DNA from: Terriglobia bacterium
GTDB taxonomy: Bacteria > Acidobacteriota > Terriglobia > 20CM-2-55-15
Assembly: GCA_963664115.2 (NCBI GenBank)
Contig: CAXWPJ010000011.1
Coordinates: forward strand, 1-64,000
Direction: 5' to 3'
DNA: 64,000 bases
The notes under the pieces are model-generated. The model had not been told where the DNA came from and did not search any database. It saw only the letters and a list, made by a program, of their open reading frames with translations. The position numbers and the translations under genes were made by a program. Each line of letters starts with the position of its first letter. Within the stretch, counting starts at the first letter, position 1. Below, piece by piece: positions 892 to 58,410 of this stretch.

Positions 892-1099
892 TCGCCACAG
901 TGTTCTTTCAGTTTTCGTAGAGCGTGCACTCTGGGCGCTCTGACGAGCCTACCTCCTCAGTTCGACTATCCGTTTTGGTTCGAATGCGACCTTCAACATT
1001 GCCGGATATACGCTGCGGGGCATAACTACAGTGATCTAGAACTCGATAGCAACGGAACATTCCGCAAATGCCAATTCTCAACGTCCGACAAGATGATCT

Positions 1100-1467
1100 A
1101 TGAAAGGGGATGTCAAGAGAAACAGCTCCCCGATGGCCGGCCAGGCGGACACTTTTGTCGTGACAGCCAGCCCCTCTACCGTTATGTGAAGCCCTGGTTC
1201 CGGCAATCCGCAGCGAAATCGTACATCTTTAAGACGGTCGATTCAGAAACTGAACAGCAGATGGGACGGCATGTGCCGACCATGGATCTATCTGAGCCTC
1301 GAAGGCTATCGCTGTTTCAGGTCGTGCGAGGGGGGATAGAGATTTAAAAGTGTCCTCTGGACGTATCCAGGGACCACATCTTGTGCAGATCCTCACCCTC
1401 GATCCTCAGTTGTTCCGACTCCGTCTAACGACTCAGTACGGCTCTACCGGTCACGGATCGAAACGGC
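1100..1467 (-). ncRNA. Predicted bridge/seek RNA in the downstream non-coding region of IS1111-A
   Basis: 370-bp non-coding region after the transposase; minus strand has ACAAGATG and TAAATC either side of a hairpin, matching the two target halves. Confidence 0.65.
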
Positions 1468-2532
1468 TTATGTTGTCATCCAGCTCAGTTTCTTTGGATC
1501 GAACGATTCTCCTTTCTTCCAAAGCGTCAGCACCAGCGCGGCGATCTTGCGGGCCAGAGTGACCCGCGCCATTTCCTCCCGCATCCCACGCATCTGGAGA
1601 CTCTCCAGATAAATCCGATACGGCTCGCTTTGTTTTCCCGATGCCGCGGCTGAGAAGAACACCGACTTCAATCGCCGGTTGCAGTTCGCATTCAATCCGC
1701 GCGTGGCCACCGGTTTCCTCCGTCGCACCACACGTCCACTCTGCATCTCATACTCCGCGCTCATGTGGGTCACCACACCCAGGCCACTGTAGCTCCAGAA
1801 CTGCGGTGTCGTGCGGAATCGGTACGGCGTGTCCACGATGGCGACGATCTGTGCCGCCCGAACCGGTCCCAGTTGTGGAATGGTCTCGAGCAGTTTCACC
1901 GCCTCATGGTGCCGGCCCTCCACTCGCACCGCTTTTCTGGATTGTTTCCGCAGCAACTGGACCTGGTCCAGTTCCGCATACAACCATCGGGCGCGCTGCC
2001 TCATCCCCGGCTCGGTCAGCTTCTCCAACCACTGTTCGCGCTGACTCGGCCGATAGACTCCGTCCTTCGGTGTCGGGATCCCCCGTCCCCGGTATATCGC
2101 TTTGATCCGCGACATCACCCGTTGCGTGTCCAACTGGAACGTGTCATAGGCCTGCACCAGTTGCTTCAATTCTCGCGTCGCTTCATGGCCGTGATACACC
2201 GAGCGCAACAGTCCCACCCGCAACAGCTCGGCCAGCTTCCGCGCATCCGGCTTATCCCCCTTCGACCCTTCTTGCATCCACTTGTTCTGTCGCGGATCGC
2301 ACACCACCACCTCGCTCACCCACGGCCGGATCACTTCCGATAACCAGCCCGCTTGCGTGGTCTCCTCCAACCCCACGTGCATCGGCCCACTCAATCCCTC
2401 CAGCAGCCGTGTGATACTCCCCGCCTCGGTTTCCACGATCGTTTCAAACACCAGTTTGCCGCTCCCGTCTCTCACCGCAACCACCGTCGTTGCCTGGTGC
2501 ACATCCATACCCATATACTTGTCTTGTTTCAT
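1468..2532 (-). CDS. IS110 family transposase/recombinase
   Basis: N-terminal GMDVH, E and DxxDA DEDD motifs; IPQLGP and YSGLG C-terminal motifs. Confidence 0.93.
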   Translation of the reverse strand: MKQDKYMGMDVHQATTVVAVRDGSGKLVFETIVETEAGSITRLLEGLSGPMHVGLEETTQAGWLSEVIRPWVSEVVVCDPRQNKWMQEGSKGDKPDARKLAELLRVGLLRSVYHGHEATRELKQLVQAYDTFQLDTQRVMSRIKAIYRGRGIPTPKDGVYRPSQREQWLEKLTEPGMRQRARWLYAELDQVQLLRKQSRKAVRVEGRHHEAVKLLETIPQLGPVRAAQIVAIVDTPYRFRTTPQFWSYSGLGVVTHMSAEYEMQSGRVVRRRKPVATRGLNANCNRRLKSVFFSAAASGKQSEPYRIYLESLQMRGMREEMARVTLARKIAALVLTLWKKGESFDPKKLSWMTT

Positions 2533-2804
2533 CTCGAACGCTCCTTTTCTGGGATCAACGCTGTATACGTTGATCAGGTTGTTGAGTGAGTCTTCTCTCA
2601 ACAACCCCCAGTCTAGGGGCGTCCTTTCATACTGCGATTTAACAGGACTTGAGAATGGATTTCGGAGATGGACAGGTCTGCCATCCGACTCTGTTGGGAT
2701 GGCATGATTCACGAGCCCATGCAGCGTTGACGTAGACAAAGATTGACATGCAGTACATTCTTCGTTTTCATGTGACCTACCTCAAGGGAATCGGAGGGAA
2801 AGAC

Positions 2805-3904: not shown

Positions 3905-3944
3905 TTCTCAAGGTCCGAGAAGATGATTTATCAGGACTTGAAAA
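3905..3944. repeat. 40-bp palindromic repeat copy
   Basis: ttctcaaggtccgagaagatgatttatcaggacttgaaaa. Confidence 0.9.
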
Positions 3945-4028
3945 CAGATTTCAGGCTTTTGAGGGGATAGAACGCCGCTTCACGGCACCGGCAGTAGCGT
4001 GTCCGAAGGCTAGAGAATATCCGAAGCA

Positions 4029-5120
4029 TCAATCGGTCAGGAAGTGATACATGCCGAGGACGTTCTCGTCGACCCAATCGAAGTCCCCCCAGTGACTGTA
4101 CTCTTCCATCTTGATGTCTCGTTGCATGTCCTCCAGTGTCTGGCCCGAAGCGATGCCGGCGGCAACCTCGTCTCGGAGTGTTTCGAAGTACTCTCGCCAC
4201 GCTCTGACGTCTTCCCGGGTGCCCACCGGCCCGTGGCCTGTCGCAACGAACTCAAAGTCTGCCGCTAGCTCCTCCGTTTGACTGATAGCAGCCATCCACT
4301 CTTCGAACATCCCGAGTTCGTAGTCCATCTCCCTGTTCGGAAGCCGCCCGAACGAGACATAGTCGACGATCAACATCACGCTGTCGTCTGGAAAGGTGAT
4401 CATGCTCGAGTCCTTCGAGTGATTCATCTCGCCAACCCAGGTCAGGTTCACCCGTTTTCCGCCCAAGTTGATCTGAAACTCGTCTGTATAGGTGATATCA
4501 GGAGGACGCACAAAGCTAATTGGTCCGCGCACAACCTCCGCGCCGCTGAGCACGCCGTCCTCGTTCGCGTCGAATCCTTCGAACTGGCTCTGGCTCGAGC
4601 CGGCGAAGCGCTGGAGGTCCGCAGGTGTCTCACTTTCCTCAACCACTCCGTTGCCGTTGGTATCCAGCGCCGCCACGGGCTCGTACTGCCCAACGACTTG
4701 CGAGAGCGTGGTAGACGCTGGCGGCATCGCCAGGTACGAGAGCATGTTGGCATGACCCACAAACCGGGCCGTATCCGCGAAGACGTCCCCGCCGGAGGCA
4801 TGGTCCCAGTGGTAGTGGCTGTAGACGACGTATCTGACCGGGACCCCGAACCGAGCGGCGAACTCCTCCTTCAGCCACATCGAGAATTCAATGTTGATCG
4901 GATCCGCCAAGACGATGCCTTCCGGCGTGACCAGGAAGACGGTGCCGTGGTTGTTGCTCATAGCCCTGTAGACGCCGCCGGCGATGTGCTCAATCGTCCA
5001 TCGCGTTGCCTCGGTGGGCGACGAACGCCTCAACTCAGGCGTCTGGCCAAAGCCCCCTGACGCGAGCACCAGCGCTGCGACCAAAACCGCCAGAATCACG
5101 CTTGTCGTACTGCTACGCAT
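4029..5120 (-). CDS. Secreted metallo-beta-lactamase-fold hydrolase with inserted EF-hand-like loops
   Basis: SHYHWDH, HS and GHG motifs; DTNGNGVVEESE and DANEDGVLSGAE loops. Confidence 0.85.
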   Translation of the reverse strand: MRSSTTSVILAVLVAALVLASGGFGQTPELRRSSPTEATRWTIEHIAGGVYRAMSNNHGTVFLVTPEGIVLADPINIEFSMWLKEEFAARFGVPVRYVVYSHYHWDHASGGDVFADTARFVGHANMLSYLAMPPASTTLSQVVGQYEPVAALDTNGNGVVEESETPADLQRFAGSSQSQFEGFDANEDGVLSGAEVVRGPISFVRPPDITYTDEFQINLGGKRVNLTWVGEMNHSKDSSMITFPDDSVMLIVDYVSFGRLPNREMDYELGMFEEWMAAISQTEELAADFEFVATGHGPVGTREDVRAWREYFETLRDEVAAGIASGQTLEDMQRDIKMEEYSHWGDFDWVDENVLGMYHFLTD

Positions 5121-5445
5121 TCGCTTCTCCTTACTAGCATTTACTGGCCGCCTCGACTTCGGTTTGTTTATAGCGGAGAGTGACGGCAGTGAGGTACAGC
5201 CAGAACGTGAGGGCTAGAACGGCATACAGAGAATCCACATCGAGGCTTGTGAACGCACTTAGGAGCAGAGCTGCAACCCAAACAACGACTATGGCTTTAC
5301 GCATGCTTTCCACTGGCCACACCTCGGAGAAATCTTAGCACGCCTCACGCAACTCAACAGCGACTCCGCCCACCGCCTCGGTTCCAAGTTGTTGATTTTG
5401 GGGGATGACTCGGCAGGCTCGGTTGATGCCGGCCTAGGTTGTAAA

Positions 5446-5485
5446 AGTTCAACGTCCGAGAAGATGATTTCTCAGGACTTGACCA
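5446..5485. repeat. 40-bp palindromic repeat copy with mismatched outer arms
   Basis: ttcaacgtccgagaagatgatttctcaggacttgacc. Confidence 0.9.
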
Positions 5486-5494
5486 AGCAAATCT

Positions 5495-5905
5495 ACGACA
5501 CCGTCAGCGCTCTGATAGTTGTCAGACCCCGCTTGTTCCGCTTATCCGCTCAACATGGGCAAGTTCACCAACTGGCTGGACGCGGGGCGGGTCGTGCTGA
5601 ACACGTTCCGGCTGTACGCCGAGTTCAACGGCACGCTGACGCCCATCACCGACAACGAGGCGTTGCGGGTGGCAACCGACGAGTACAACGCCATCGTGCG
5701 GGCAAGGGCATGAACGGTCAGCCCATACGCCGGACCACACCTTCGATCAGCTCACCATCGTCTGCTTCGCAGCCCAGTGGGTGGCGATGACGTCTGTCTG
5801 CTGACTGACAGGAAGCACATGTGCACTCTGGTGAAAAAGTATCCTCGATCGATCAACTTGCCAATGCCAGCAGAAGCTATTGCGGGTCAAGGGACGCCGC
5901 GTAAG
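5495..5905. repeat. 411-bp segment duplicated in inverted orientation at 33479-33889
   Basis: Direct comparison; near-identical ORF translations at both sites. Confidence 0.9.
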
Positions 5906-6923
5906 CAACAAGGTACAGCAAGTCTTCCGTACTGAGATCGGCAACGACCGGCGTCATCAGCTCAGACCACAGTCCCTTACGCGTGCCCTGCTGCATGTCA
6001 TACAACGCCCGCATGAGGTAACTGGCAGACCGACCCGCGATTCCAGGCAAGGGGCCGAGACCCTTCAGACCTGGACCGTGACAGATACTGCACTGCCCGG
6101 CCTCGGCCAATGCCCTACCCTTCTCGACCGCACCAACCGGAACATAAGCGATCCAGCCGGACCTCGGATTACGGTGCACCTCTGCGTGCTCGATATTCTC
6201 CGGGGTTTCAACGATACGCAGCCCGATCGGTTCAGTGCCCGACGTAGCAGCAGTAGCCTGGCACTCCGTGAAGATGTCGATTTCACAGTCCACTGGGAGA
6301 TAAATGCCCCCCAGCGTGTAGCTCTCGAATACGGTGTCGGTCTCCACGACCCGGACCCATGGCCTCCAAGGCTGTGCGCCGAAGTACTCGGCAGCAGCAA
6401 CGATCTCCTCTTCGGTCATGTTCTTCGCGATTTGGGTCATCGTCCGAGCGTTGTTCTTTCTCGGTTCTGAGCTATTCCTCAGATCGTTGCGAAAATCGTC
6501 CATCTGCTGGATGAAATACGAAACCGGTAAGCCCGCGACGCCAGCGTTCTCCGGGCGCCCCTGCCCATTGGGGTAGTGACAAAGCGCACACGCCCGCACG
6601 ACAGCGCCCTCCTCTGCCGTCCGACCGTTCGCAACGATGTCAGGCATCGGCGTTGGATGGTCGTCGGGATACCAGTCGGCGGGAGAGCGACCGCGAATCT
6701 GGGTGGCCGTGAACGTCCGGTCAGTATCGGGCAAGCTGAAGACCGTCCCATCCTCTTCCGGACGGGGAGGACGCGGCCCCAATGGGATGCCATAGGCCCA
6801 ATCAGGTCGCTCAGTCTGCACCAATGCTTGGCCGTTAGCCGATTGCTCGCTCTGGGCGCTCAATACGCCAACAACAACCACGGGCATCGCCAACAAGACA
6901 ACGAAACCTAGAATTTTCTGCAT
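5877..6923 (-). CDS. Di-heme cytochrome c4-like protein
   Basis: CALCH and CSICH heme motifs; signal peptide. Confidence 0.88.
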   Translation of the reverse strand: MQKILGFVVLLAMPVVVVGVLSAQSEQSANGQALVQTERPDWAYGIPLGPRPPRPEEDGTVFSLPDTDRTFTATQIRGRSPADWYPDDHPTPMPDIVANGRTAEEGAVVRACALCHYPNGQGRPENAGVAGLPVSYFIQQMDDFRNDLRNSSEPRKNNARTMTQIAKNMTEEEIVAAAEYFGAQPWRPWVRVVETDTVFESYTLGGIYLPVDCEIDIFTECQATAATSGTEPIGLRIVETPENIEHAEVHRNPRSGWIAYVPVGAVEKGRALAEAGQCSICHGPGLKGLGPLPGIAGRSASYLMRALYDMQQGTRKGLWSELMTPVVADLSTEDLLYLVAYAASLDPQ

Positions 6924-7121
6924 GACGTCCCTCCCTCCTGCTACTCCTTGCTACACGGCACTCCGCAGAACCGCGACCGGCATTGACAGGTTGATCCTAG
7001 CACGGCCATCGAGTCCCGTCCGAAGTGTATCAGCCTCGTCCCGACCTTGCCGAGATCAGTCCCATGACCATGGCCCGTTCTCAACCCAAATTGCCTCGAT
7101 CGCATCAGGCACGGTCATCCA

Positions 7122-7385
7122 GGTACTGTCAACTTACGGGTCCAAAGGTCGAACCTGTGCCAGATCGGCGCCGCTCGATCAGCCTACCGAGACCGCATTC
7201 CAAGTCGCAAAGGAACGGGCCCGAAGCATCTGGTGGTGAACCGCTTTTAGTCTGTGCCTTCCCAACGGGAAAAGATTCAGAACGACACCGTGAACTGAGA
7301 GGAAGAGTTGCGCCTGCCGTGGCGACTTGAACCGTCGCATCTGTCGCTCCCGTTGTCGGGTCGGTTGGTGTGGCCGTGCGGGCAC
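7122..7385 (-). pseudogene. IS6-family remnant: transposase C-terminus plus terminal inverted repeat
   Basis: HQPTRQRERQMRRFKSPRQAQ motif; GGTACTGTCAACTT end at 7122-7135. Confidence 0.75.
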
Positions 7386-7504
7386 TTCAAATCTGAGGAT
7401 GTTGTGGACACTGTCCGGGGAGGTTGAGCGAGAAGCGTGAGGGTCCTGAGAACCCGTTGAAGCAGCAAACGAAAAGTCCGAGCGCCTTTAACAGCTCTTC
7501 GCGA

Positions 7505-7544
7505 AGGTCAATGTCCGAGAAGATGATTTATCAGGACTTTACCG
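7505..7544. repeat. 40-bp palindromic repeat copy (GGTCAA arm type), next to a kinase-tail repeat at about 7551-7600
   Basis: ggtcaatgtccgagaagatgatttatcaggactttacc. Confidence 0.85.
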
Positions 7545-7643
7545 CGAAAATCAGAGAATCGGCACCCGTTCTTTTAGTTCTTCAAACCAACGTCAGGCTG
7601 TTTTATACGTTCACGTTCGCAGCTCCAACGCTCACCTCGAAGA

Positions 7644-7865
7644 TTACGAATTCTTCTGGTATGGAGATACCTTCGCCGCACTGTAATCAGAGCGATGCCC
7701 GCATTCAGATTCGCTGCAGGTGAGAAACAGCTGTGCCAGCGGCTCGAACGGACCGCGTCCTTCGGTTCGATCCAGACCGAACAAAATCGGCGAGTGGCAT
7801 TTCGCACAAAGCACACTCAAGTACCATCGCTTCTCAGTCGATTTTGGAAATCGGGAAAACTGCAT
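7644..7865 (-). CDS. Small putative Zn-ribbon protein, paralog of 43743-43994
   Basis: RWYLxVLCxxCxSPILF...LTCxxxECG..DYS shared by both copies. Confidence 0.7.
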   Translation of the reverse strand: MQFSRFPKSTEKRWYLSVLCAKCHSPILFGLDRTEGRGPFEPLAQLFLTCSESECGHRSDYSAAKVSPYQKNS

Positions 7866-7890
7866 AAGCACACGGTTTTGGAGGATCGCG

Positions 7891-8142
7891 CAATTCTCAA
7901 CGTCCGACAAGATGATTTCTCAGGACTTGAGAATGATTTTCACCTCTTTTGCCGGCCCCGCCAGCTGCAGCGGCTTGTTAGGCCCCAAACGTGGACCTCG
8001 ACCACCCGTGGAGCCTGGAGCGCCAGCGGAAGGCCGTCCACTGCATCCCGTGTTAGGCAATATTATTTTGCCCAAACAAGTTCATTGAGAATCGATACTC
8101 TGAGTAGGGCATGGCTCCATCTGTCATATTCCGAGTATCCCC
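7891..8142 (-). pseudogene. Inverted duplicate of the GNAT unit 3' end (55272-55523), cut off by IS256
   Basis: 252 bp near-identical; one end at the repeat, the other at the IS256 inverted repeat. Confidence 0.88.
7894..7933. repeat. 40-bp palindromic repeat copy
   Basis: ttctcaacgtccgacaagatgatttctcaggacttgagaa. Confidence 0.92.
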
Positions 8143-18920: not shown

Positions 18921-19538
18921 ATGAAAGAACTGCTCGCCGTTGATGTTGCTCTGCTGCTACCAGAGGAAACAAACGAACTCTGCAAACGAATCAACACGGC
19001 TCTGGTGCAGGATGACCCCACAGGTTTTGCTTTTGACTCAACTCACTTTCCTCACGTTACGTTAGTTCAGCAGTTCGTCTTGAAATCGAACCTAGCCGCG
19101 CTATGCAGTGAAATAGAGAAAGTTTTGAAGGGCCGATCCCCGTTGCGACTACGGGCGTTAGAAACAGCTTTCGTCGGAACTCCAACGCTTCTCCGCATTG
19201 CGAAAACAAAAGCGTTAAGGCAGATTCACGACGATCTGGTGAACGCCTTAGCGGGGCTGTCCAAGTCGTGGGGTGACGGCAGTGCCTTCTTCTCACAAGG
19301 ACAGAGCGTTCAGGGCTGGGAGATCGAATACGTTACCGAATATCGGGAAGCCGCGAGCTTTGACAGGTATGACCCCCATGTCACCCTCGGCGTCGGTCGG
19401 AGCGAGATCCCAATGCAGCCGTTCTCCTTTACAGCCGATCTCGTCGGTTTGTACCAGCTGGGAAAATTCTGCACCTGTCGCCGACGGTTGCAGGAGTGGA
19501 GACTGAACTCTGCGACTCTCAACCCAGAATCGTCCTGA
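18921..19538 (+). CDS. 2H phosphoesterase (2'-5' RNA ligase family)
   Basis: Two HVTL motifs. Confidence 0.85.
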   Translation: MKELLAVDVALLLPEETNELCKRINTALVQDDPTGFAFDSTHFPHVTLVQQFVLKSNLAALCSEIEKVLKGRSPLRLRALETAFVGTPTLLRIAKTKALRQIHDDLVNALAGLSKSWGDGSAFFSQGQSVQGWEIEYVTEYREAASFDRYDPHVTLGVGRSEIPMQPFSFTADLVGLYQLGKFCTCRRRLQEWRLNSATLNPESS

Positions 19539-19683
19539 ACTGGTTTGAAGAACTGAAGGAACGTGTGCCGGTGCCGTAGTTTTCCTGGTCAAGTCCTGAG
19601 AAATCATCTTCTCGGACGTTGAGAACCCCCGTTTTTAGGCCTTTTCTCACTGTCCGAGAAGGTCCTTTATCAGGACCTGAGCT
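19529..19683. repeat. Kinase tail (19529-19579), repeat (19586-19625) and an inverted degenerate repeat (19644-19683)
   Basis: Direct sequence match to both repeat families. Confidence 0.85.
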
Positions 19684-21119: not shown

Positions 21120-23057
21120 ACCGGGTCGCCAGAGGCGGTCACCCGCCTCCGGCTCCCACAGAACGTAGCGTGCGGATTTCCCGCACTACGCTCTTCAGAA
21201 ACGGATTCACAACACAGCAAGAGACTGGAACTCCCGATACGGAAGCGCCAGCTTGGGCCGCTGCAACGGAAAGCGCGTCTTAATCCGGTTGAATACCTCC
21301 CACCGGACGTAACCAGCGCGACTCCGGCTGCTCAGCATCTTGCGCCAGTAACGCTCCACGACCCGAGCAACGTGCTGGAGGGCCCGGAAGTTTCCGGCGA
21401 TGCCGTAGTAGGCGTAGTGACCACGCAAGACCCGATTCAGATTCTGAACCTGCTCCCGGACCGGCAAGTGACGCATTCGTCTCATCAGATCGCGTAGATG
21501 GGCCAGACTGCGTTGAAGTCGAGACTTCTCAGTGCGCAATCCCACCCGGAAATTGCCTTTGCGATTCTGCGAGCAGTACAGGGTCATGCCCAGAAAGTAG
21601 ATCGTTTCTGGACGTTTTCTCCCGTGCTTGCCCGCATCCCGCTGAGCAAAGCGACCGAATTCAACGAGCTTTGTCTTTGTCGGTTCCAGAACCAGCCCAA
21701 ACTTTCCCAATCGCTTGCGCAGCACGTTCTGAAAACGAAGCGCATCGTCCCAATATTGGAAACACACCACAAAGTCGTCGATGTACCGCACCAGATAGGC
21801 TTCACCTTTCAGGTGTGGCCGGACCATCCGGTCAAACCACAGGTCGAGCACATAGTGCAGGTACAGATTGCTCAGCAGAACGCTGATCGACCCACCCTGT
21901 GGGGTTCCCTCATCGTTGGGATGCAATTCTCCGTCTTCGAACACCCCCGCCTTCAACCATCGTCGAATCAGGCTGATGATCCGCGGATCTCCGACTCGAT
22001 GCTCCACAAAGCGGAGTAGCCATCCATGGTCTAAACTCCCGAAAAAGTTCTTCAGGTCTGCCTCCAACACCCAACTCACCTTGCGCCCAGCAATCACCTC
22101 ATGCAGGGTTGCCAGTGCATAGTGCGCACCCAGCCCAGGCCGACCACCAAAAGAACAAGGCAAGAAGTCCTGTTCGTAGATGGCTGTCAGCACCTCGGCC
22201 ACGCTGCGCTGAAGGGCCCGATCTTGAACACAAGGCACGCCCAGGGGACGTTTCTCCTGTTTGCCGGGCTTGGGGATATACACTCGCCGAATCGGCGGTG
22301 CGCGATATCCCTTCCGGTGTACCGATTCGAGCATCGGCTCCACCCAGTCCCCGAATTCTTCCTTCGCCTCCGGCACTCTCTGGCCATCACATCCGGGAGC
22401 AGAGTTCCGTGGAATCGCACAAAGGCTCTTCCACACCCTCTCTCGGGTGACATGATGCGCCAGCGATGTGAACCGGAGCTTGGGTTCACTCCGAGCTTTC
22501 GCTGCTATTTGTTCCAGTTTCGTTTCCATGACTGGCAGTTCCTCTCGTTGTATAGAGGGCCGAATCCTCCCATTGAATGGAGCCCCTGTTTCCCTTGAAC
22601 AATTCCTCTTCCGCTGACCGCTTCCCCATGTGATCGGTTCTCCCGACCTCGGAGTACTATCAGTCAGTCTGACTTCCGCCAGGCCTTCGGGTTGTCCTCA
22701 CGTTGTGGGCTTGTCCAACCCTACAAGCTCCGCTTGAGCCTGACGGATCTCCCTTGTTCCCATGAAATCTCTCAGTTATATGCCGGCGGTACGAACCCCG
22801 GAAGCACCCCAGAACGCTTGCCATTGCACGCCCTGCGATTCCGCCTTCCCCATAGAGAGACAAGGTCGGCTACTTCAACCACGATCGATTTCGGGGCTAT
22901 CTTTCCGTTCACTTGCGTTCCGGCCTACTCCCTCCCTGTCTACGCTTCGCAGTGACCGTTACCGGCCCCCACGCAAGACTCGGTTCGTGGCTGCGGGCTA
23001 AGCTTTGCCACGGGCGCCATTTCAGGCGACTAGACTTCATGCGCTTTCAAGGCGCAA
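21120..23057 (-). mobile_element. Inner RT-encoding group II intron
   Basis: Starts TTGCG; D5 GAGCGTAGTGCGGGAAATCCGCACGCTACGTTC and D6 follow the ORF. Confidence 0.88.
21207..22529 (-). CDS. ltrA: Group II intron reverse transcriptase/maturase without an endonuclease domain
   Basis: RPLGVP, GTPQGG, RYIDDF, domain X (LRGHYAYY). Confidence 0.93.
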   Translation of the reverse strand: METKLEQIAAKARSEPKLRFTSLAHHVTRERVWKSLCAIPRNSAPGCDGQRVPEAKEEFGDWVEPMLESVHRKGYRAPPIRRVYIPKPGKQEKRPLGVPCVQDRALQRSVAEVLTAIYEQDFLPCSFGGRPGLGAHYALATLHEVIAGRKVSWVLEADLKNFFGSLDHGWLLRFVEHRVGDPRIISLIRRWLKAGVFEDGELHPNDEGTPQGGSISVLLSNLYLHYVLDLWFDRMVRPHLKGEAYLVRYIDDFVVCFQYWDDALRFQNVLRKRLGKFGLVLEPTKTKLVEFGRFAQRDAGKHGRKRPETIYFLGMTLYCSQNRKGNFRVGLRTEKSRLQRSLAHLRDLMRRMRHLPVREQVQNLNRVLRGHYAYYGIAGNFRALQHVARVVERYWRKMLSSRSRAGYVRWEVFNRIKTRFPLQRPKLALPYREFQSLAVL

Positions 23058-28798: not shown

Positions 28799-28968
28799 AG
28801 GAAAATCTCCTGTGTGGTGCTCGTTACGTGCGCGAGTTCTTCGGAGCGAATCTATAACTGTTGTGGACCGATTTCAAGGAGTTTTGACCCAGCCCCCGCA
28901 GGGTGTTTAAACAGCCGAAGGTGTTGGTACCCTGTAAATCGGCAATTCTCAACGTCCGACAAGATGAT

Positions 28969-30509
28969 CTATGAAAGGGGATGTCAAGAGAAACAGCTCC
29001 CCGATGGCCGGCCAGACGGACACTTTTGTCGTGACAGCCAGCCCCTCTACCGTTATGTGAAGCCCTGGTTCCGGCAATCCGCAGCGAAATCGTACATCTT
29101 TAAGACGGTCGATTCAGAAACTGAACAGCATATGGGACGGCATGTGCCGACCATGGATCTATCTGAGCCTCGAAGGCTATCGCTGTTTCAGGTCGTGCGA
29201 GGGGGGATAGAGATTTAAAAGTGTCCTCTGGACGTATCCAGGGACCACATCTTGTGCAGATCCTCACCCTCGATCCTCAGTTGTTCCGACTCCGTCTAAC
29301 GACTCAGTACGGCTCTACCGGTCACGGATCGAAACGGCTTATGTTGTCATCCAGCTCAGTTTCTTTGGATCGAACGATTCTCCTTTCTTCCAAAGCGTCA
29401 GCACCAGTGCGGCGATCTTACGGGCCAGAGTGACCCGCGCCATTTCCTCCCGCATCCCACGCATCTGGAGACTCTCCAGATAAATCCGATACGGCTCGCT
29501 TTGTTTTCCCGATGCCGCGGCTGAGAAGAACACCGACTTCAATCGCCGGTTGCAGTTCGCATTCAATCCGCGTGTGGCCACCGGTTTCCTCCGTCGCACC
29601 ACACGTCCACTCTGCATCTCATACTCCGCGCTCATGTGGGTCACCACACCCAGGCCACTGTAGCTCCAGAACTGCGGTGTCGTGCGGAATCGGTACGGCG
29701 TGTCCACGATGGCGACGATCTGTGCCGCCCGAACCGGTCCCAGTTGTGGAATGGTCTCGAGCAGTTTCACCGCCTCATGGTGCCGGCCCTCCACTCGCAC
29801 CGCTTTTCTGGATTGTTTCCGCAGCAACTGGACCTGGTCCAGTTCCGCATACAACCATCGGGCGCGCTGCCTCATCCCCGGCTCGGTCAGCTTCTCCAAC
29901 CACTGTTCGCGCTGACTCGGCCGATAGACTCCGTCCTTCGGTGTCGGGATCCCCCGTCCCCGGTATATCGCTTTGATCCGCGACATCACCCGTTGCGTGT
30001 CCAACTGGAACGTGTCATAGGCCTGCACCAGTTGCTTCAATTCTCGCGTCGCTTCATGGCCGTGATACACCGAGCGCAACAGTCCCACCCGCAACAGCTC
30101 GGCCAGCTTCCGCGCATCCGGCTTATCCCCCTTCGACCCTTCTTGCATCCACTTGTTCTGTCGCGGATCGCACACCACCACCTCGCTCACCCACGGCCGG
30201 ATCACTTCCGATAACCAGCCCGCTTGCGTGGTCTCCTCCAACCCCACGTGCATCGGCCCACTCAATCCCTCCAGCAGCCGTGTGATACTCCCCGCCTCGG
30301 TTTCCACGATCGTTTCAAACACCAGTTTGCCGCTCCCGTCTCTCACCGCAACCACCGTCGTTGCCTGGTGCACATCCATACCCATATACTTGTCTTGTTT
30401 CATCTCGAACGCTCCTTTTCTGGGATCAACGCTGTATACGTTGATCAGGTTGTTGAGTGAGTCTTCTCTCAACAACCCCCAGTCTAGGGGCGTCCTTTCA
30501 TACTGCGAT
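28969..30509 (-). mobile_element. IS1111-A copy 2 (transposase 29339-30403), in a repeat split into 28946-28968 and 30510-30526
   Basis: Same ends, core and insertion position as copy 1. Confidence 0.93.
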
Positions 30510-30532
30510 TTATCAGGACTTGACCTCGTAAA

Positions 30533-51710: not shown

Positions 51711-52349
51711 ATGGTGACTTCAGTGTTGATGCTATTGACGCTTCTGGGTCCGATGGAACAGGGACCCAGAGAACTCACGGTCCCGGATGAGTCGCAGATC
51801 AAACCACCACTGGTCGTATCCGAAGGTACCGTCATCCCGGTGAGCCTGATTAACGAGATTTCAACCAAGAACGCCGAAGCCGGCAACGGAGTCTATGCTC
51901 AGACGATTTTTCCGGTCACGGTAAACAACGAAATCGTGATTCCCGTAGGCAGCTACGCCCGCGGCCGAATCGTAAACGCAACGCGTCCCGGACGCGTGAC
52001 GGGAAAAGCCGAGCTGACGATCAACTTCCATACGATTATCCTGCCCAGCGGTTTGACGCTGCCGGTCTTCGGAAGCCTGGGTGGCGTCGGTGGTGTCGCC
52101 GAAAGACAGGGAGAAGCGACGGTCAGTGGTGACTCCACGAAAGGCAAAGACGTGGGTACCGTCGCCACAACCGCAGGCACGGGCGCGGTCATCGGGGCGA
52201 TCAGCGGTGGCGGCAAAGGCGTGGCCATTGGAGCCGGGGCCGGCGCGGCGGCTGGAATCGCTCAAGTTCTTCTGAGCCGCGGAGAGGATCTTACCCTGCC
52301 CCGCGGTACGACAATCGAGGTGGTACTCGACCGTCCGCTGGAGCCCTGA
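51711..52349 (+). CDS. TrbI/VirB10-like domain protein with glycine zipper
   Basis: GTVIPVSL, IPVGS, Gly/Ala-rich helices. Confidence 0.65.
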   Translation: MVTSVLMLLTLLGPMEQGPRELTVPDESQIKPPLVVSEGTVIPVSLINEISTKNAEAGNGVYAQTIFPVTVNNEIVIPVGSYARGRIVNATRPGRVTGKAELTINFHTIILPSGLTLPVFGSLGGVGGVAERQGEATVSGDSTKGKDVGTVATTAGTGAVIGAISGGGKGVAIGAGAGAAAGIAQVLLSRGEDLTLPRGTTIEVVLDRPLEP

Positions 52350-52413
52350 ACAGATTTGCAACCCCCCGCTCTTTCCATTACCTTTAATTGACAGGGCCCA
52401 TGGAGGGCCGTCA

Positions 52414-52488
52414 CGGGGCGTAGCGTAGTCCGGTCAGCGCGCCTGCTTTGGGAGCAGGAGGCCGGGAGTTCGAATCTCCCCGCCCCGA
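52414..52488 (+). tRNA. tRNA-Pro(TGG), CCA not encoded
   Basis: Acceptor stem CGGGGCG/CGCCCCG; anticodon loop TTTGGGA; GTTCGAATC T-loop. Confidence 0.93.
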
Positions 52489-52801
52489 TTGAACTTAGCG
52501 AAACAATGAGGCCACGAAAAACGACAGAATTAACGACCTGATTAACAAATCGAGGTTGCTAGGAAGCGCACGTGATTACATTATTGACGGGAGTCAGAAC
52601 GCTCATCTACACGGCCAGAGTGACGAGCCAGGGCGTGATCAGGTCGGTATACATGCATCAGCTGCTTAACACAGGCGGGTGATCGTTTCTGCTGACGGCC
52701 GCAGCAAGCCGGAATCACCGCAGCGCTTCCTGAAGGCCAAAAAGTGGCAACCTATGGCAACCGGATGGGTAGTGCCTAAGATTAGGTGGGCCTTAGATTG
52801 T

Positions 52802-53328
52802 TCAACGGCAGTCATCGAACCAGTCGGGTTTCAATCGAATATATGAGTTCACAACGGATGCGAGTTGAGCGCCCACAGCGACCGAAACAGCGTATACCTT
52901 TTTATTGTTAAGTCGCACTGCTTCTACCGCAGGCGTGAAGTCCCCATCCGCAGACAGCAGGTAGGCAGCATCGAACTCATCCCGCTCGGCCATGACCACC
53001 ATATCGACTGCAACCATCACGTCTACAGCTTTTTCAACCATTGCGGTTGTTTTGTGATGAGTACGGGCGAGCCGGCCGAGATCGTGATAGACCTGTTGGT
53101 CAATTCGCGTCGGGAGATTAGCGAGATACGCTGCTAGTTCCTTAGCCAGCGGATTATCGACTGGTCGCTGCTCAAGGCGACCGAGGTGAGTCGAAATCTT
53201 AGGATCAGTCGCACCGAGCGACGCCAAGAAGCGACGCTGGGCGGCGTAAAGATTGTTCGCTCCAGTCTGCGGTACTCTCCCGATATAGTATCGGGTTCCA
53301 ACCCAGCTAAACAGACTGTAACTTATAG
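52802..53328 (-). pseudogene. NYN-domain (LabA/DUF88) nuclease, 5'-truncated by IS256
   Basis: EKAVDV..AVD and LLSADGDF motifs. Confidence 0.82.
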
Positions 53329-54772
53329 GAGTTATTGTCAAAAGTGGTGTTTAGGAGATTGATTCAAGCGGCGGCCTGATCGACTTGTGTCGCTTCGACA
53401 CCATCGTTGAATTTCACTCCGATGATTACCTTGCTCAGATCATCGAATCCTCGTAATCGTCGCCAATTGTTCTCAGCGCACTGGCCCAGTTTGAACATCA
53501 TGTGCAGCATGCCATCCCGTGCCCAGTTTGAACATCATGTGCAGCATGCCATCAGCCGTCGCGTTCGGGGGCTTCTCTTCCAGTGCAACCTCTGGATCGC
53601 TTCGTTCGGTGTCGAATGGTGGCAAAGGTCGACTCAATGGGATTCGTCGTTCTGATGCTCTGCCAGTGCTTGGCCGGAAAGTCGTAAAAGGCCAGCAGTT
53701 CCTCTCTGTCTTTCTGCAGGCAGAGTGTGGCTTTCGGATACTTCGGTTCATAGGTTTCAATGAACAAGTCGAATGCCTTCTCGGCGTCTGCCTTCGTCTC
53801 GGCCTGCCAGATCGAGTGCAGGGCCTGTTTCGCCTTCGCCTGGACCGACTTGGGCAGGCAGTTGAGGACGTTCATGACTTTGTGCATCCAGCAACGTTGT
53901 TGACGTGTCTCGGGATAGATTTCCTCCAGTGCGGCCCAGAACCCCATCGCACCGTCACCGATGGCCAACTTCGGAACATTCATCCCACGGGACTTCAGCT
54001 TCAACAAGACCTCGCGCCAACTCTGTGTCGATTCCCGTACACCGTCTTCGATCGCCAGGAAACGCTTCTCTCCGCGTTCATTCACGCCGATCACGACCAA
54101 TGCACACAACTTGGTTTGTTCCGCCCGAAGTCCGCTGTAGATGCCGTCGGCCCAGACATAGACCCAGCGATCTGCATCCAAACGCTCCTCGCATCCGAGG
54201 CGGTACTGTTCGCCCCAAACCTGTTTCAACCGCGATACCGTGCTCGCCGACAGACCCTGCGCCTGGGGACCGACAAGAACTTTTAGGGCCTCACCCATCT
54301 CGCCGCTGGAAACGCCTTTCAAATACAACCACGGCACCGCTGCTTCCAGCGACTTCGTCTTCCGAATGTACGGTGGTACCAGGGCCGATCGGAACGTCAC
54401 AGCTTCGCCCGTCTTGGCACGGACCTTCGGGATTTGGACTGTTACCGGACCCAATCCCGTCTGCAGTTCGCGTTCCGGCAGATAACCGTTGCGTACCACC
54501 CCGGCGTTTCCTGTCTCAGTTCGCCGGCCACCGTGCTGGGATAGCAGCTCTGCCAATTCGGCTTCCACTGCGCGTTGGATCAGTTGCTGTGCCCCAACTC
54601 GTAGTAGTTCTGTTACTGGATCCTCAATCGTTTCTCGACCTTCCGGTCCATTCACGTTACTCTTGCTCACAGTGGCGTATCTCCTATGGTTGCTTTGAAG
54701 TTTTGTCACAACAAATCAACCAGATACGCCGCTCTTATTCAATCCCTCAAACACCAGATTCGGTTATAACTC
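53329..54772 (-). mobile_element. IS256 copy 4, disrupted by a net 59-bp composite insertion
   Basis: 1444 bp versus 1385 bp; ORF diverges after KRSRGC. Confidence 0.92.
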
Positions 54773-54806
54773 AGTCCTGAGAAATCATCTTGTCGGAAGT
54801 TGAGAA
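54773..54806. repeat. Palindromic repeat copy clipped by IS256
   Basis: agtcctgagaaatcatcttgtcggaagttgagaa. Confidence 0.88.
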
Positions 54807-54857
54807 AAAAGAAGGGAAAATTTCTTATCGAGTTCCAGATAATCGTAGTTAGGCCAG

Positions 54858-55361
54858 ATGAACTGCGAAACGATCAGACGAGCGTACAACTCTGATTCCC
54901 CACGGATAATTTCGCTCATAGCCGACGTCTATCGAGAGTACGGCGACGAGATCTATCTAGAAGGAGCGGACAAGGATCTAGTTGATATTGAAGGATATTA
55001 CCGACAGGTAAGCGGGGATTTTGTCATATTGGAAAGGAATGACGAAATCGCAGGAACGCACGCCGTACTCCCGCTTGACCTAGCGAACCGCGTCATAACC
55101 TTCAGACGGCTGTACCTTCGGCAGGAGTTGCGTGGGTCGGGTTGCGGAAAGCGGTTGATGAAATGGGCAATCGATTGGTCGATGCGCGAAGGCTATCACT
55201 CAGTAGAGTTTTGGTCTGACATACGATTCCAACGGGCACACAGGTTCTTTCAGCAATTAGGTTTCACGAAAGGGGATACTCGGAATATGACAGATGGAGC
55301 CATGCCCTACTCAGAGTATCGATTCTCAATGAACTTGTTTGGGCAAAATAATATTGCCTAA
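54858..55361 (+). CDS. GNAT N-acetyltransferase
   Basis: RRLYL..ELRGSGCGK motif A; AHRFF..LGF. Confidence 0.88.
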   Translation: MNCETIRRAYNSDSPRIISLIADVYREYGDEIYLEGADKDLVDIEGYYRQVSGDFVILERNDEIAGTHAVLPLDLANRVITFRRLYLRQELRGSGCGKRLMKWAIDWSMREGYHSVEFWSDIRFQRAHRFFQQLGFTKGDTRNMTDGAMPYSEYRFSMNLFGQNNIA

Positions 55362-55480
55362 CACGGGATGCAGTGGACGGCCTTCCGCTGGCGCTCCAGG
55401 CTCCACGGGTGGTCGAGGTCCACGTTTGGGGCCTAACAAGCCGCTGCAGCTGGCGGGGCCGGCAAAAGAGGTGAAAATGA

Positions 55481-55520
55481 TTCTCAAGTCCTGAGAAATC
55501 ATCTTCTCGGACGTTGAGAA
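55481..55520. repeat. 40-bp palindromic repeat, consensus copy
   Basis: ttctcaagtcctgagaaatcatcttctcggacgttgagaa. Confidence 0.95.
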
Positions 55521-55567
55521 TTGGATTTCACCACTTTTCGGGACCAATCACCACAGCTAGTGACCAT

Positions 55568-55930
55568 ATGAGCCTATCCAGCGCGACCCCTATTCTTAGA
55601 ATCTTCGACGAAGCAAAAGCGAAGGAATTCTATGGCTCTTACTTGGGGTTTTCCGTGGACTGGGAGCATCGGTTTGGTGATGAGTTCCCTCTGTACATGC
55701 AACTGTCCAAAGATAACTGCGTCCTTCATCTTTCCGAACACCACGGCGACGGGACGCCAGGGAGCGCGATTCGCATCGAAACTGATGACGTTGGTGCTTT
55801 GAATCAAGAACTACTGGACAAGGCCTATCGATACGTGAAGCCAAGCGTCGAAGAGAAACCGTGGAACACAAAAGAGATGACGATCACCGATCCGTTTGGC
55901 AATCGATTGATCTTTTTCGAGAACGAATAG
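55568..55930 (+). CDS. Glyoxalase/bleomycin-resistance superfamily protein
   Basis: EFY..YLGF.VDWEHRF, HLSEHHGD, DPFGNRL. Confidence 0.88.
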   Translation: MSLSSATPILRIFDEAKAKEFYGSYLGFSVDWEHRFGDEFPLYMQLSKDNCVLHLSEHHGDGTPGSAIRIETDDVGALNQELLDKAYRYVKPSVEEKPWNTKEMTITDPFGNRLIFFENE

Positions 55931-55942
55931 CCCTGAAATCCG

Positions 55943-55982
55943 TTCTCAAGTCCTGAGAAATCATCTTCTCGGACGTTGAACT
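55943..55982. repeat. 40-bp palindromic repeat copy
   Basis: ttctcaagtcctgagaaatcatcttctcggacgttgaa. Confidence 0.93.
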
Positions 55983-56005
55983 CCAGACTGGTACTCTCTT
56001 CAGTA

Positions 56006-56917
56006 ATGCCTACCGGTAAACCTTGGCTACCTGAGCATATCGTGATGCCAGATGCGGCCGTTCGTCTGATCGAAAGCCAATTCCCGGAGCTTCGACCTGC
56101 GCATATCCAACTTCTAGGTGAGGGTTGGGACAATACGGCCTACGTAGTGAACAGGACTTGGGTTTTCCGGTTTCCTCGCCGAGAGATAGCGGTGGAACTG
56201 CTGCAGACGGAAACTCGCGTCCTTCCTCGAATTGCAGCTCAGTTGCCTTTCCCTATCCCAGTACCAAGATGGGTTGGTAAGCCAACACAAGAGTATGATT
56301 GGCCGTTTGCGGGCTATCGCTTTCTTCCAGGCACCACGGCACTGAGTGTTGGATTGACGCGAGAGCAGAGGAAGGAACTTGCTGCTCCCTTAGCGAATTT
56401 CTTAGCAACTCTACATGCCATTGATCCGGGAGATCTGGAAATTCCGGGAGATAAATTTGGCCGAGCTGACATGGGAAAACGTATTCCACAGTTGCTCTCA
56501 AGTCTTCTGACGATTCGAGGAAAGGGATTGGTTGCTGACGTTTCACCTTGGGAACGGATCGTTGAACAGATGTCATCGGACTTTCAACCGCGGTTGAACA
56601 CATTGTCACACGACGATTTTTCAGCGGAGCATATCCTTGTGGACAACTTTGGACTGCCAAGCGGCGTGATTGACTGGGGCGACATCCACCTAGGAAGCCC
56701 CAGTATGGATTTGGCTATTGCGTTCGGTTTTCTGCCACCCGAGGGTCGCGAAGTATTTTGGGATAGCTATGGAGCCGTCGAAAAGCCGATCCAAATCATG
56801 GCGCGATTTCGTGCTCTCCACGCCGCCGTCATTGGTGTCCTATATGGCGATGATATTGGCGACACTGCTCTCCTGCGCGAGAGCTTATTGGGGATGGACT
56901 TCGCGATAGAGTCGTGA
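56006..56917 (+). CDS. Aminoglycoside phosphotransferase (APH) family kinase
   Basis: GEGWDN, VFRFPR, HDDFSAEHIL, IDWGD. Confidence 0.88.
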   Translation: MPTGKPWLPEHIVMPDAAVRLIESQFPELRPAHIQLLGEGWDNTAYVVNRTWVFRFPRREIAVELLQTETRVLPRIAAQLPFPIPVPRWVGKPTQEYDWPFAGYRFLPGTTALSVGLTREQRKELAAPLANFLATLHAIDPGDLEIPGDKFGRADMGKRIPQLLSSLLTIRGKGLVADVSPWERIVEQMSSDFQPRLNTLSHDDFSAEHILVDNFGLPSGVIDWGDIHLGSPSMDLAIAFGFLPPEGREVFWDSYGAVEKPIQIMARFRALHAAVIGVLYGDDIGDTALLRESLLGMDFAIES

Positions 56918-56959
56918 CCGAGACAATTCCTAGAACTAGACTACGGGAAGTCAGTCCGC

Positions 56960-58344
56960 GAGTTATTGTCAAAAGTGGTGTTTAGGAGATTGATTCAAGC
57001 GGCGGCCTGATCGACTTGTGTCGCTTCGACACCATCGTTGAATTTCACTCCGATGATTACCTTGCTCAGATCATCGAATCCTCGTAATCGTCGCCAATTG
57101 TTCTCAGCGCACTGGCCCAGTTTGAACATCATGTGCAGCATGCCATCCCGTGTCAGGCAACCTCTGGATCGCTTCGTTCGGTGTCGAATGGTGGCAAAGG
57201 TCGACTCAATGGGATTCGTCGTTCTGATGCTCTGCCAGTGCTTGGCCGGAAAGTCGTAAAAGGCCAGCAGTTCCTCTCTGTCTTTCTGCAGGCAGAGTGT
57301 GGCTTTCGGATACTTCGGTTCATAGGTTTCAATGAACAAGTCGAATGCCTTCTCGGCGTCTGCCTTCGTCTCGGCCTGCCAGATCGAGTGCAGGGCCTGT
57401 TTCGCCTTCGCCTGGACCGACTTGGGCAGGCAGTTGAGGACGTTCATGACTTTGTGCATCCAGCAACGTTGTTGACGTGTCTCGGGATAGATTTCCTCCA
57501 GTGCGGCCCAGAACCCCATCGCACCGTCACCGATGGCCAACTTCGGAACATTCATCCCACGGGACTTCAGCTTCAACAAGACCTCGCGCCAACTCTGTGT
57601 CGATTCCCGTACACCGTCTTCGATCGCCAGGAAACGCTTCTCTCCGCGTTCATTCACGCCGATCACGACCAATGCACACAACTTGGTTTGTTCCGCCCGA
57701 AGTCCGCTGTAGATGCCGTCGGCCCAGACATAGACCCAGCGATCTGCATCCAAACGCTCCTCGCATCCGAGGCGGTACTGTTCGCCCCAAACCTGTTTCA
57801 ACCGCGATACCGTGCTCGCCGACAGACCCTGCGCCTGGGGACCGACAAGAACTTTTAGGGCCTCACCCATCTCGCCGCTGGAAACGCCTTTCAAATACAA
57901 CCACGGCACCGCTGCTTCCAGCGACTTCGTCTTCCGAATGTACGGTGGTACCAGGGCCGATCGGAACGTCACAGCTTCGCCCGTCTTGGCACGGACCTTC
58001 GGGATTTGGACTGTTACCGGACCCAATCCCGTCTGCAGTTCGCGTTCCGGCAGATAACCGTTGCGTACCACCCCGGCGTTTCCTGTCTCAGTTCGCCGGC
58101 CACCGTGCTGGGATAGCAGCTCTGCCAATTCGGCTTCCACTGCGCGTTGGATCAGTTGCTGTGCCCCAACTCGTAGTAGTTCTGTTACTGGATCCTCAAT
58201 CGTTTCTCGACCTTCCGGTCCATTCACGTTACTCTTGCTCACAGTGGCGTATCTCCTATGGTTGCTTTGAAGTTTTGTCACAACAAATCAACCAGATACG
58301 CCGCTCTTATTCAATCCCTCAAACACCAGATTCGGTTATAACTC
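56960..58344 (-). mobile_element. IS256 copy 5 with 9-bp target duplication TCAGTCCGC
   Basis: Duplication at 56951-56959 and 58345-58353. Confidence 0.95.
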
Positions 58345-58370
58345 TCAGTCCGCACGGTAGATGATCTAAC

Positions 58371-58410
58371 CGCTCAAGTCCTGAGAAATCATCTTCTCGG
58401 ACGTTGAGAA
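58371..58410. repeat. 40-bp palindromic repeat copy
   Basis: ctcaagtcctgagaaatcatcttctcggacgttgagaa. Confidence 0.93.

Follow-up and report, generated by a model that had tools for sequence, protein, structure and literature searches.

A dif-like 34-bp site bounds cassette-like gene units in an acidobacterial genus

What holds three otherwise ordinary genes in a row between four copies of the same short repeat? The question is raised by positions 54,770 to 58,407 of a 64,000-nucleotide stretch of DNA from a Terriglobia bacterium (hereafter the window; C11:1-64000 of the source genome G000, which is assembled in 12 contigs), where genes for a GNAT acetyltransferase, a glyoxalase and an APH-family phosphotransferase alternate with a 34-bp site. 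The original prediction, made from the letters of the window, read this locus as a promoter-poor array of integron-type cassettes in a tRNA-associated island. We find instead a real, genus-wide cassette-like system on a dif-like site, which works like the dif modules of Acinetobacter, looks like an integron array without integrase (CALIN, a cluster of attC sites lacking an integrase), and fails the defining tests of both. The repeats are likely the places where a tyrosine recombinase cuts and rejoins the DNA; if so, genes would be shuffled here in the manner of an integron, without integron parts.

The four repeats start at 54770, 55484, 55946 and 58374, all on the same strand, as had been described, and the repeat has no match in shuffled or reversed controls. 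The three genes are co-oriented, and the named Pfam families were found in each. The features of the array are as follows.

54770..54803, plus strand: site copy 1, class A (spacer ATCATC), its first 3 bases replaced by an IS256 end; intact in the copy of the GNAT unit on contig C6
54848..54854, plus strand: integron core-like heptamer, 4 bp upstream of the GNAT start, a sign of integron-cassette origin
54858..55361, plus strand: GNAT acetyltransferase gene, 167 residues (Pfam family match)
55356..55466, plus strand: two truncated attC-like left halves (starts 55356 and 55431), their right halves absent
55484..55517, plus strand: site copy 2, class A, consensus; breakpoint of the block common to C6
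55568..55930, plus strand: Glyoxalase_7 (VOC) gene, 120 residues, in a 462-bp site-to-site unit (Pfam)
55946..55979, plus strand: site copy 3, class A, consensus
56006..56917, plus strand: APH-family phosphotransferase gene, 303 residues (Pfam)
56925..56951, no strand: decayed second-type symmetric 11-6-11 site, one base short, resembling the sites beside a recombinase of the relative G030
56960..58344, minus strand: IS256, 1385 bp, in the APH unit, with a 9-bp target duplication (56951-56959 and 58345-58353)
58374..58407, plus strand: site copy 4, class A, consensus

The reported spacings of 47, 12 and 23 bp between repeats and genes are correct for a 40-bp repeat and become 50, 15 and 26 bp when measured from the 34-bp core. 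The statement that each interval holds one gene with little spacer does not extend to the third, where IS256 lies between the APH gene and repeat 4; a copy of the APH unit free of this insertion sequence is present on contig C12. The other IS256, which removed the first three bases of repeat 1, has no matching target duplication. Because the APH protein scores far below curated cut-offs (71 bits against 600 for the nearest named resistance family), it is not established as a resistance enzyme. A promoter consensus scan of the array gave 2 matches, with 4.1 expected by chance, and does not bear out the description as promoter-poor.

Are such units exchanged at the site? We consider this very probable. 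The GNAT, glyoxalase and APH genes are each found elsewhere between the same sites with other neighbours, which bears out the cassette-like reading; a fixed operon, the arrangement that had been set against it, is not what is found, because each of the three genes recurs in other company, the homologues checked being flanked by the same repeat. The GNAT unit is followed by the glyoxalase unit here and by a 355-bp unit both on C6 and at window position 7897, the glyoxalase unit has a different upstream neighbour on C6, and the IS256-free APH unit on C12 stands behind a different neighbour again. Between species, the congener G001 has the GNAT unit too, ~97% identical and in different company, and it shares a 681-bp unit with G000 from end to end. 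Class A pairs that share only one 150-bp flank share the downstream flank in 10 cases and the upstream flank in 6 (n=16). In a comparison that covered 60 island regions of relatives rather than whole genomes, low-copy DNA that G000 has in common with a relative gave 308 ends, of which 32 lie at a site in both genomes; 6.8 would be expected in the relative alone. Finally, in a 295-nt contig from an RNA run the end of GNAT passes straight into the start of APH without a mismatch, and exactly the 462-bp glyoxalase unit is left out. Public runs were available as contigs only, which break at repeats, and joints with sides of 30 letters or fewer were thrown out as repeat artefacts.

Several points weigh against exchange as just described. 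Because 37 letters are shared at the joint of the glyoxalase-skipping contig, an assembly artefact or reverse-transcriptase switching is possible there. Of the 16 one-flank pairs (which are not independent), 8 have different arms next to the flank they share, meaning that crossovers are not confined to the spacer or that arms are converted. No excision circle was seen. The swaps on C6 may be strain differences, because C6 and C11 overlap like two haplotypes; the APH copy on C12 is independent of that overlap. As an observation on the assembly itself, C11 (1-83160) and C6:1-46165 overlap at both ends and five more contig ends are duplicated, and for these reasons the G000 assembly holds strain variants.

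The site core is TCAAGTCCTGAGAA ATCATC TTCTCGGACGTTGA, that is, a 14-bp arm, a 6-bp spacer and a 14-bp arm. Counted at up to nine mismatches to this 34-bp core, G000 holds 171 copies, against none in the shuffled or reversed controls; 10 of them are duplicates from overlapping contigs, leaving 161 distinct contexts, and about 25 further copies have an insertion-split or shortened spacer. Sites are strongly clustered, with 151 of the 171 lying within 10 kb of another (86 expected) and multi-site clusters covering 10.5% of the assembly. A spacer-free pattern allowing 3 mismatches found 115 copies in G002, 65 in G003, and 18 and 10 in the other two of the four congeners compared (G001 to G004), and 2, 1 and 0 in a sister genus; under a stricter pattern 34 of 40 relatives have zero copies, and among other genomes of the phylum 2 of 400 gave one weak match. 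Exact matches in the genome collection came from five records, all labelled Terriglobia bacterium. No Rfam family matches the repeat, no plasmid match to the site was found in the search for vehicles, and the one viral-contig match, which lies inside coding sequence, was taken as chance.

What reads such a site? Across four genomes most of its positions are 88-98% invariant, positions 12, 23, 24, 29 and 30 vary freely, and the flanks fall to ~50%; conserved arms, five variable positions and a drop at the flanks are as expected of a site read by a protein. Both arms are matched exactly by 89 of the 171 G000 sites and by 39 of the 107 G002 sites examined, and they are unequal, with 9 of 14 positions symmetric. 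Spacers fall into classes: class A (ATCATC) accounts for 132 of the 171 G000 sites and class B (an ACGAC-type spacer) for 21, and ATCCGG occurs in G001 and G004. The classes obey orientation, neighbouring A-A pairs being direct in 85 of 90 cases and A-B pairs inverted in 29 of 29. On these grounds the site resembles that of a tyrosine recombinase. Sites of still other classes, with spacer GTCGGC or GTCACC, stand 20-55 bp from class A sites in G000 (C2:258699, 322773, 332370, 755313 and 93821; C5:206429; C12:429565 and 544097) and occur also in G002 and G004.

A large share of the sites belongs to a recurring module. Of 150 class A sites, 77 come after the 3' tail of a PD40-propeller Ser/Thr kinase gene, as against none of 300 random windows, and the site usually lies 10 bp past the kinase stop; class B sites are mostly inverted and lie ~80 bp upstream of the kinase start. 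Conversely, 93 of 123 kinase-like stretches are within 5 kb of a site. One example of the recurring junction lies in the window.

19523..19680, plus strand: kinase tail, class A site (19589-19622), 24-bp linker, inverted class B site (19647-19680)

Four full-length copies of the kinase are 40-48% identical overall, with nearly identical ends and starts up to 95-100% identical, a pattern that suggests either homogenization of the ends or swapping of the bodies. The full kinase-propeller genes of G000 (C5:8562, C9:945145, C10:248476 and C12:20624) are near-identical over the first 70-150 and the last 20 residues.

Which enzyme might move the units? G000 has 27 PF00589 matches, including XerC, XerD and one IntI far from any site, and only one of the 27, an arm-less recombinase of 316 residues encoded on contig C5 at 52189-53139, is bracketed by two sites. 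These are inverted class B sites from which kinase starts point outwards, and the protein has invariant catalytic residues and a XerA/Cre-like fold match. In two further relatives, G030 and G007, the homologue also faces the start of a kinase gene; in G030, which carries four symmetric 11-6-11 sites, one of them lies in between. In three of 80 metagenome homologue loci the upstream arm is 13/14 identical to a variant of the G000 arm, and one 15-member clade of homologues (L231-L281) is flanked at fixed positions on either side by 14-6-14 sites of its own. Of 19 genomic homologues, 5 have an 11-6-11 palindrome no more than 300 bp away; the controls gave none for 42 flanks of XerC/XerD and 22 for 500 random windows. 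Kinase matches occur at 7 of 22 homologue loci versus 2 of 81 control loci, the controls having been searched at a stricter cut-off. In the 15-member clade, the gene-facing arms and the spacers are conserved and the outer arms are variable at both ends, like a two-site self-mobile module.

Comparisons among genomes count against this candidate. No member of the C5 family was found in G002, G003 or G004, and the G001 copy is broken, although G002 (115 sites) and G003 (65) are rich in sites; the palindrome count falls to 3 of 17 when G000 and G030 are set aside; and the site matrix, run on the flanks of the 80 metagenome homologues, gave mean best scores of 4.0 and 4.9, no better than the 5.1 obtained inside the gene. 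We therefore place the C5 recombinase first by a small margin, ahead of host XerC and of plain homologous recombination, and we name its family as the enzyme moving the units tentatively, with rather less than even confidence.

A mechanism that fits these data can nevertheless be sketched. A small arm-less tyrosine recombinase, most likely of the 316-residue C5 family, would excise, insert and swap units at the sites. In the ancestral layout, modules of two kinds may have alternated: one made of a class B site, the kinase and a class A site in inverted orientation to the first, the other holding cargo or a linker. Units bounded on either side by direct class A sites would then have arisen once the inner site and most of the kinase had been lost or replaced. 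A single recombination could remove such an A-to-A unit as a circle, which could reinsert at any class A site, and new cargo would probably enter the kinase module by ordinary or illegitimate recombination. The alternation of C and D modules in Acinetobacter (PMC13141974) can serve as a model for the proposed alternation of kinase and cargo, with the direct A-A units as possible counterparts of the rare fused CD modules there.

Could the host do the work with its own enzymes? It is possible, if somewhat unlikely, that XerC, with XerD or alone, acts on the sites, the junction being resolved by replication or repair and the C5 recombinase being cargo. XerC and XerD are the only PF00589 proteins common to G000, G002 and G003 at orthologue level (79-92%), and resolution away from the spacer would explain why arms do not travel with their flank. 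The right arm is near a XerC arm, scoring 7.0/11 against that of G000 itself and a mean of 8.9/11 against the arm of other genomes of the class; read towards the centre it is one base from the acidobacterial XerC arms given in PMC3025954. The left arm, however, reaches only 5.0/11 against the XerD arm of G000, and there is no XerD-type arm. Furthermore, the true dif is a different, canonical site, present once, at C2:108118 near a GC-skew peak, and about one dif per genome is found in 30 of 41 genomes, whereas the 34-bp site fails the test for a chromosomal dif (a single canonical site near the terminus). Conservation of the 34-bp site also extends 3 bases past the 11-bp arms on both sides, bases that the true dif does not have, and in an alignment XerC and XerD of the genus show nothing peculiar to them in the helix that precedes the catalytic motif. 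Besides its true dif, G000 has two degenerate dif copies (C2:111514 and C9:952936), and extra dif-like copies occur in G002 and G017.

An unlikely alternative dispenses with a dedicated present-day enzyme altogether: RecA-type recombination would act between 50-400-bp blocks of site and kinase-end homology, and the sites would be relics kept alike by gene conversion. The kinase tail behind so many class A sites, kinase starts far more alike than the full proteins, arms unlinked from their flanks, and a candidate enzyme that was not found in three congeners would all fit. However, the GNAT, glyoxalase and APH units lack a kinase tail, the shared sequence within which they swap is ~50 bp long, the invariance of the site relative to its flanks is that of a protein-read site, and the spacer classes keep strict orientation rules.

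It is very improbable that the repeat is a single-strand hairpin like the repetitive extragenic palindromes (REPs), moved or cut by an HUH enzyme of RAYT or IS91 type. REP and REPIN elements with their RAYTs are short imperfect palindromes with many intergenic copies and inverted doublets, as here: the strand folds with two bulges (z of -3.9 for copy 2 and -1.3 to -1.7 for copies 3 and 4), and the inverted A-B pairs with short linkers resemble REP doublets. A RAYT-like gene is moreover conserved in all five congeners (62-92%). Against this, no stem covariation was found, positions 12:23 pairing in 49 of 128 sites where 54.5 are expected; a degenerate site lies near 1 of 10 RAYT-like loci; an IS91-type transposase was not found in G003; and the insertion of a hairpin would not give units new neighbours. 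Unlike REPs, the site is confined to islands and marks unit boundaries, and we set aside a REP/REPIN-RAYT system, the RAYT-like gene not being flanked by the site. That gene is present at C10:490081 and 492691 in G000 and at L069, L071, L074 and L079, lacks repeats on its flanks, and contains a stop codon in G004.

The integron reading of the repeat, a CALIN whose unusual attC is served by the IntI of the genome, is the least probable of all: direct repeats around small, co-oriented genes, an IntI in G000, integron-cassette ends on the GNAT gene, and two or more same-strand sites within 4 kb (the CALIN criterion in PMC4889954) are all present, but the repeat is not an attC, given that none of the 171 sites is enclosed by R'' and R' boxes, that stem covariation is lacking, that no site is near intI, the nearest being ~195 kb away, that none of the 12 PF00589 matches in G003 is an integron integrase, and that true attC halves sit as cargo beside the site. 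Because the GNAT gene keeps its integron-cassette ends, integron DNA has been taken up as cargo. The longest open reading frame is co-oriented in 33 of 46 units shorter than 2.7 kb in G000, in 16 of 28 in G002 and in 17 of 22 in G003 (mechanically called frames, insertion-sequence genes included).

How does the system compare with known ones? The dif modules of Acinetobacter, those of chromosomal islands included (PMC13141974, PMC12907356 and PMC11705084), have a two-armed site with a 6-bp spacer, one XerC-like arm and spacer classes; inverted neighbouring sites of different spacer surround a module; genes change neighbours; most modules have no adjacent recombinase; insertion sequences target the site; all as here. 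The present system differs from these descriptions in having no XerD-type arm, conserved arms of 14 bp, ~160 chromosomal copies and a host in another phylum. Fused CD modules are the exception there, whereas direct repeats are the rule here, and the alternating inverted sites of C and D modules have a parallel in the 29 A-B pairs but not in the A-A pairs, 85 of 90 being direct; one module type here is a Ser/Thr kinase gene with persisting ends. With integrons and CALINs (PMC4889954), the system shares rows of small, mostly co-oriented genes between direct repeats, far from a recombinase, and it shares GNAT, VOC and phosphotransferase-type cargo; its site differs in lacking R boxes and hairpin covariation and in having spacer classes and inverted partners, and its units, up to several kb long and in either direction, occupy many loci and not one platform. 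A Cre/lox-type system has in common the 34-bp site, a recombinase gene beside putative sites and heterospecific spacers, and differs in that the arms here are unequal, the spacer is 6 bp, the copy number is very high and activity is predicted.

Putting these features together, we can envisage a platform independent of integrons and XerCD, in which mobile arm-less tyrosine recombinases would act on 14-6-14 sites with non-compatible spacer classes, the kinase-propeller gene would be the blank cassette, with foreign genes taking the place of its interior, and the arrays, about a tenth of the chromosome, would be parasitized by IS110 and IS91-like elements; as a whole this is possible though doubtful. 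A literature search, with subscription journals and bioRxiv supplements outside its scope, found no description of the system. Most of what is documented on non-integron cassette systems comes from plasmids of Acinetobacter. In the present case, the clusters organized by a dif-like site take up ~10% of the chromosome of an acidobacterium, and units move from one species to another. The mechanism by which integron cassettes first form is called unknown in PMC4889954; this one genome shows both the kinase module, as the blank, and many stages of its partial replacement. If the 316-residue enzyme is cognate, the site classes would be natural non-compatible ones of the kind sought by builders of recombinase tools.

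Does the neighbourhood make the locus an island in its own right? The tRNA-associated island of the original prediction does not survive. The tRNA-Pro lies 2.3 kb upstream with an NYN-domain gene and a damaged IS256 in between, no PF00589 gene was found between it and the array, and none of the listed sites of G001, G002 and G003 adjoins the corresponding tRNA-Pro region. The sites form 40 clusters or singletons on 9 of the 12 G000 contigs. The array is thus not a tRNA-island feature and fails the test for a tRNA-anchored integrative island. Other features of the window are these.

3908..7930, minus strand: second run of four class A sites (3908, 5449, 7508 and 7897), ending in a second GNAT 3' end
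52414..52488, plus strand: tRNA-Pro(TGG), a neighbour whose anchor role is not supported
53329..54772, minus strand: damaged IS256 abutting site 1, outside the cassette system

Several elements are themselves associated with the site. An IS110-family element is inserted inside the 6-bp spacer at window positions 1075-2652 and 28946-30523, and at least three other elements with different ends share the same insertion point in the spacer, as site-targeting insertion sequences. Elements combining a tyrosine recombinase with an IS91-type transposase start, in most copies, 2-3 bases past a half-site spacer; their half-sites have a class A, class B or NNCCGG spacer, and their right ends carry XerC-arm-like sequence (C1:92884 and 108637; C2:196409; C3:2883; C10:411530; C12:36312, 159160, 486945 and 570248; and L141:8962). 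The IS91-linked recombinases were rejected as the enzyme: none was found in G003, and they look like parasites of the site.

Outside the assembly, near-identical pieces of the GNAT, glyoxalase and APH genes occur in two runs labelled sponge metagenome, and the RNA runs contain a fraction of 0.07-0.14 of the locus words. A group II intron with a reverse transcriptase lies within the island at window positions 21120-23022. The cargo across units is varied and includes housekeeping-type genes: a 513-residue S1-domain protein (L345:2972-4510), HemD (L343:15095-15931), YaeQ (L343:510-1106) and a ModA-like binding protein (L352:2128-2973).

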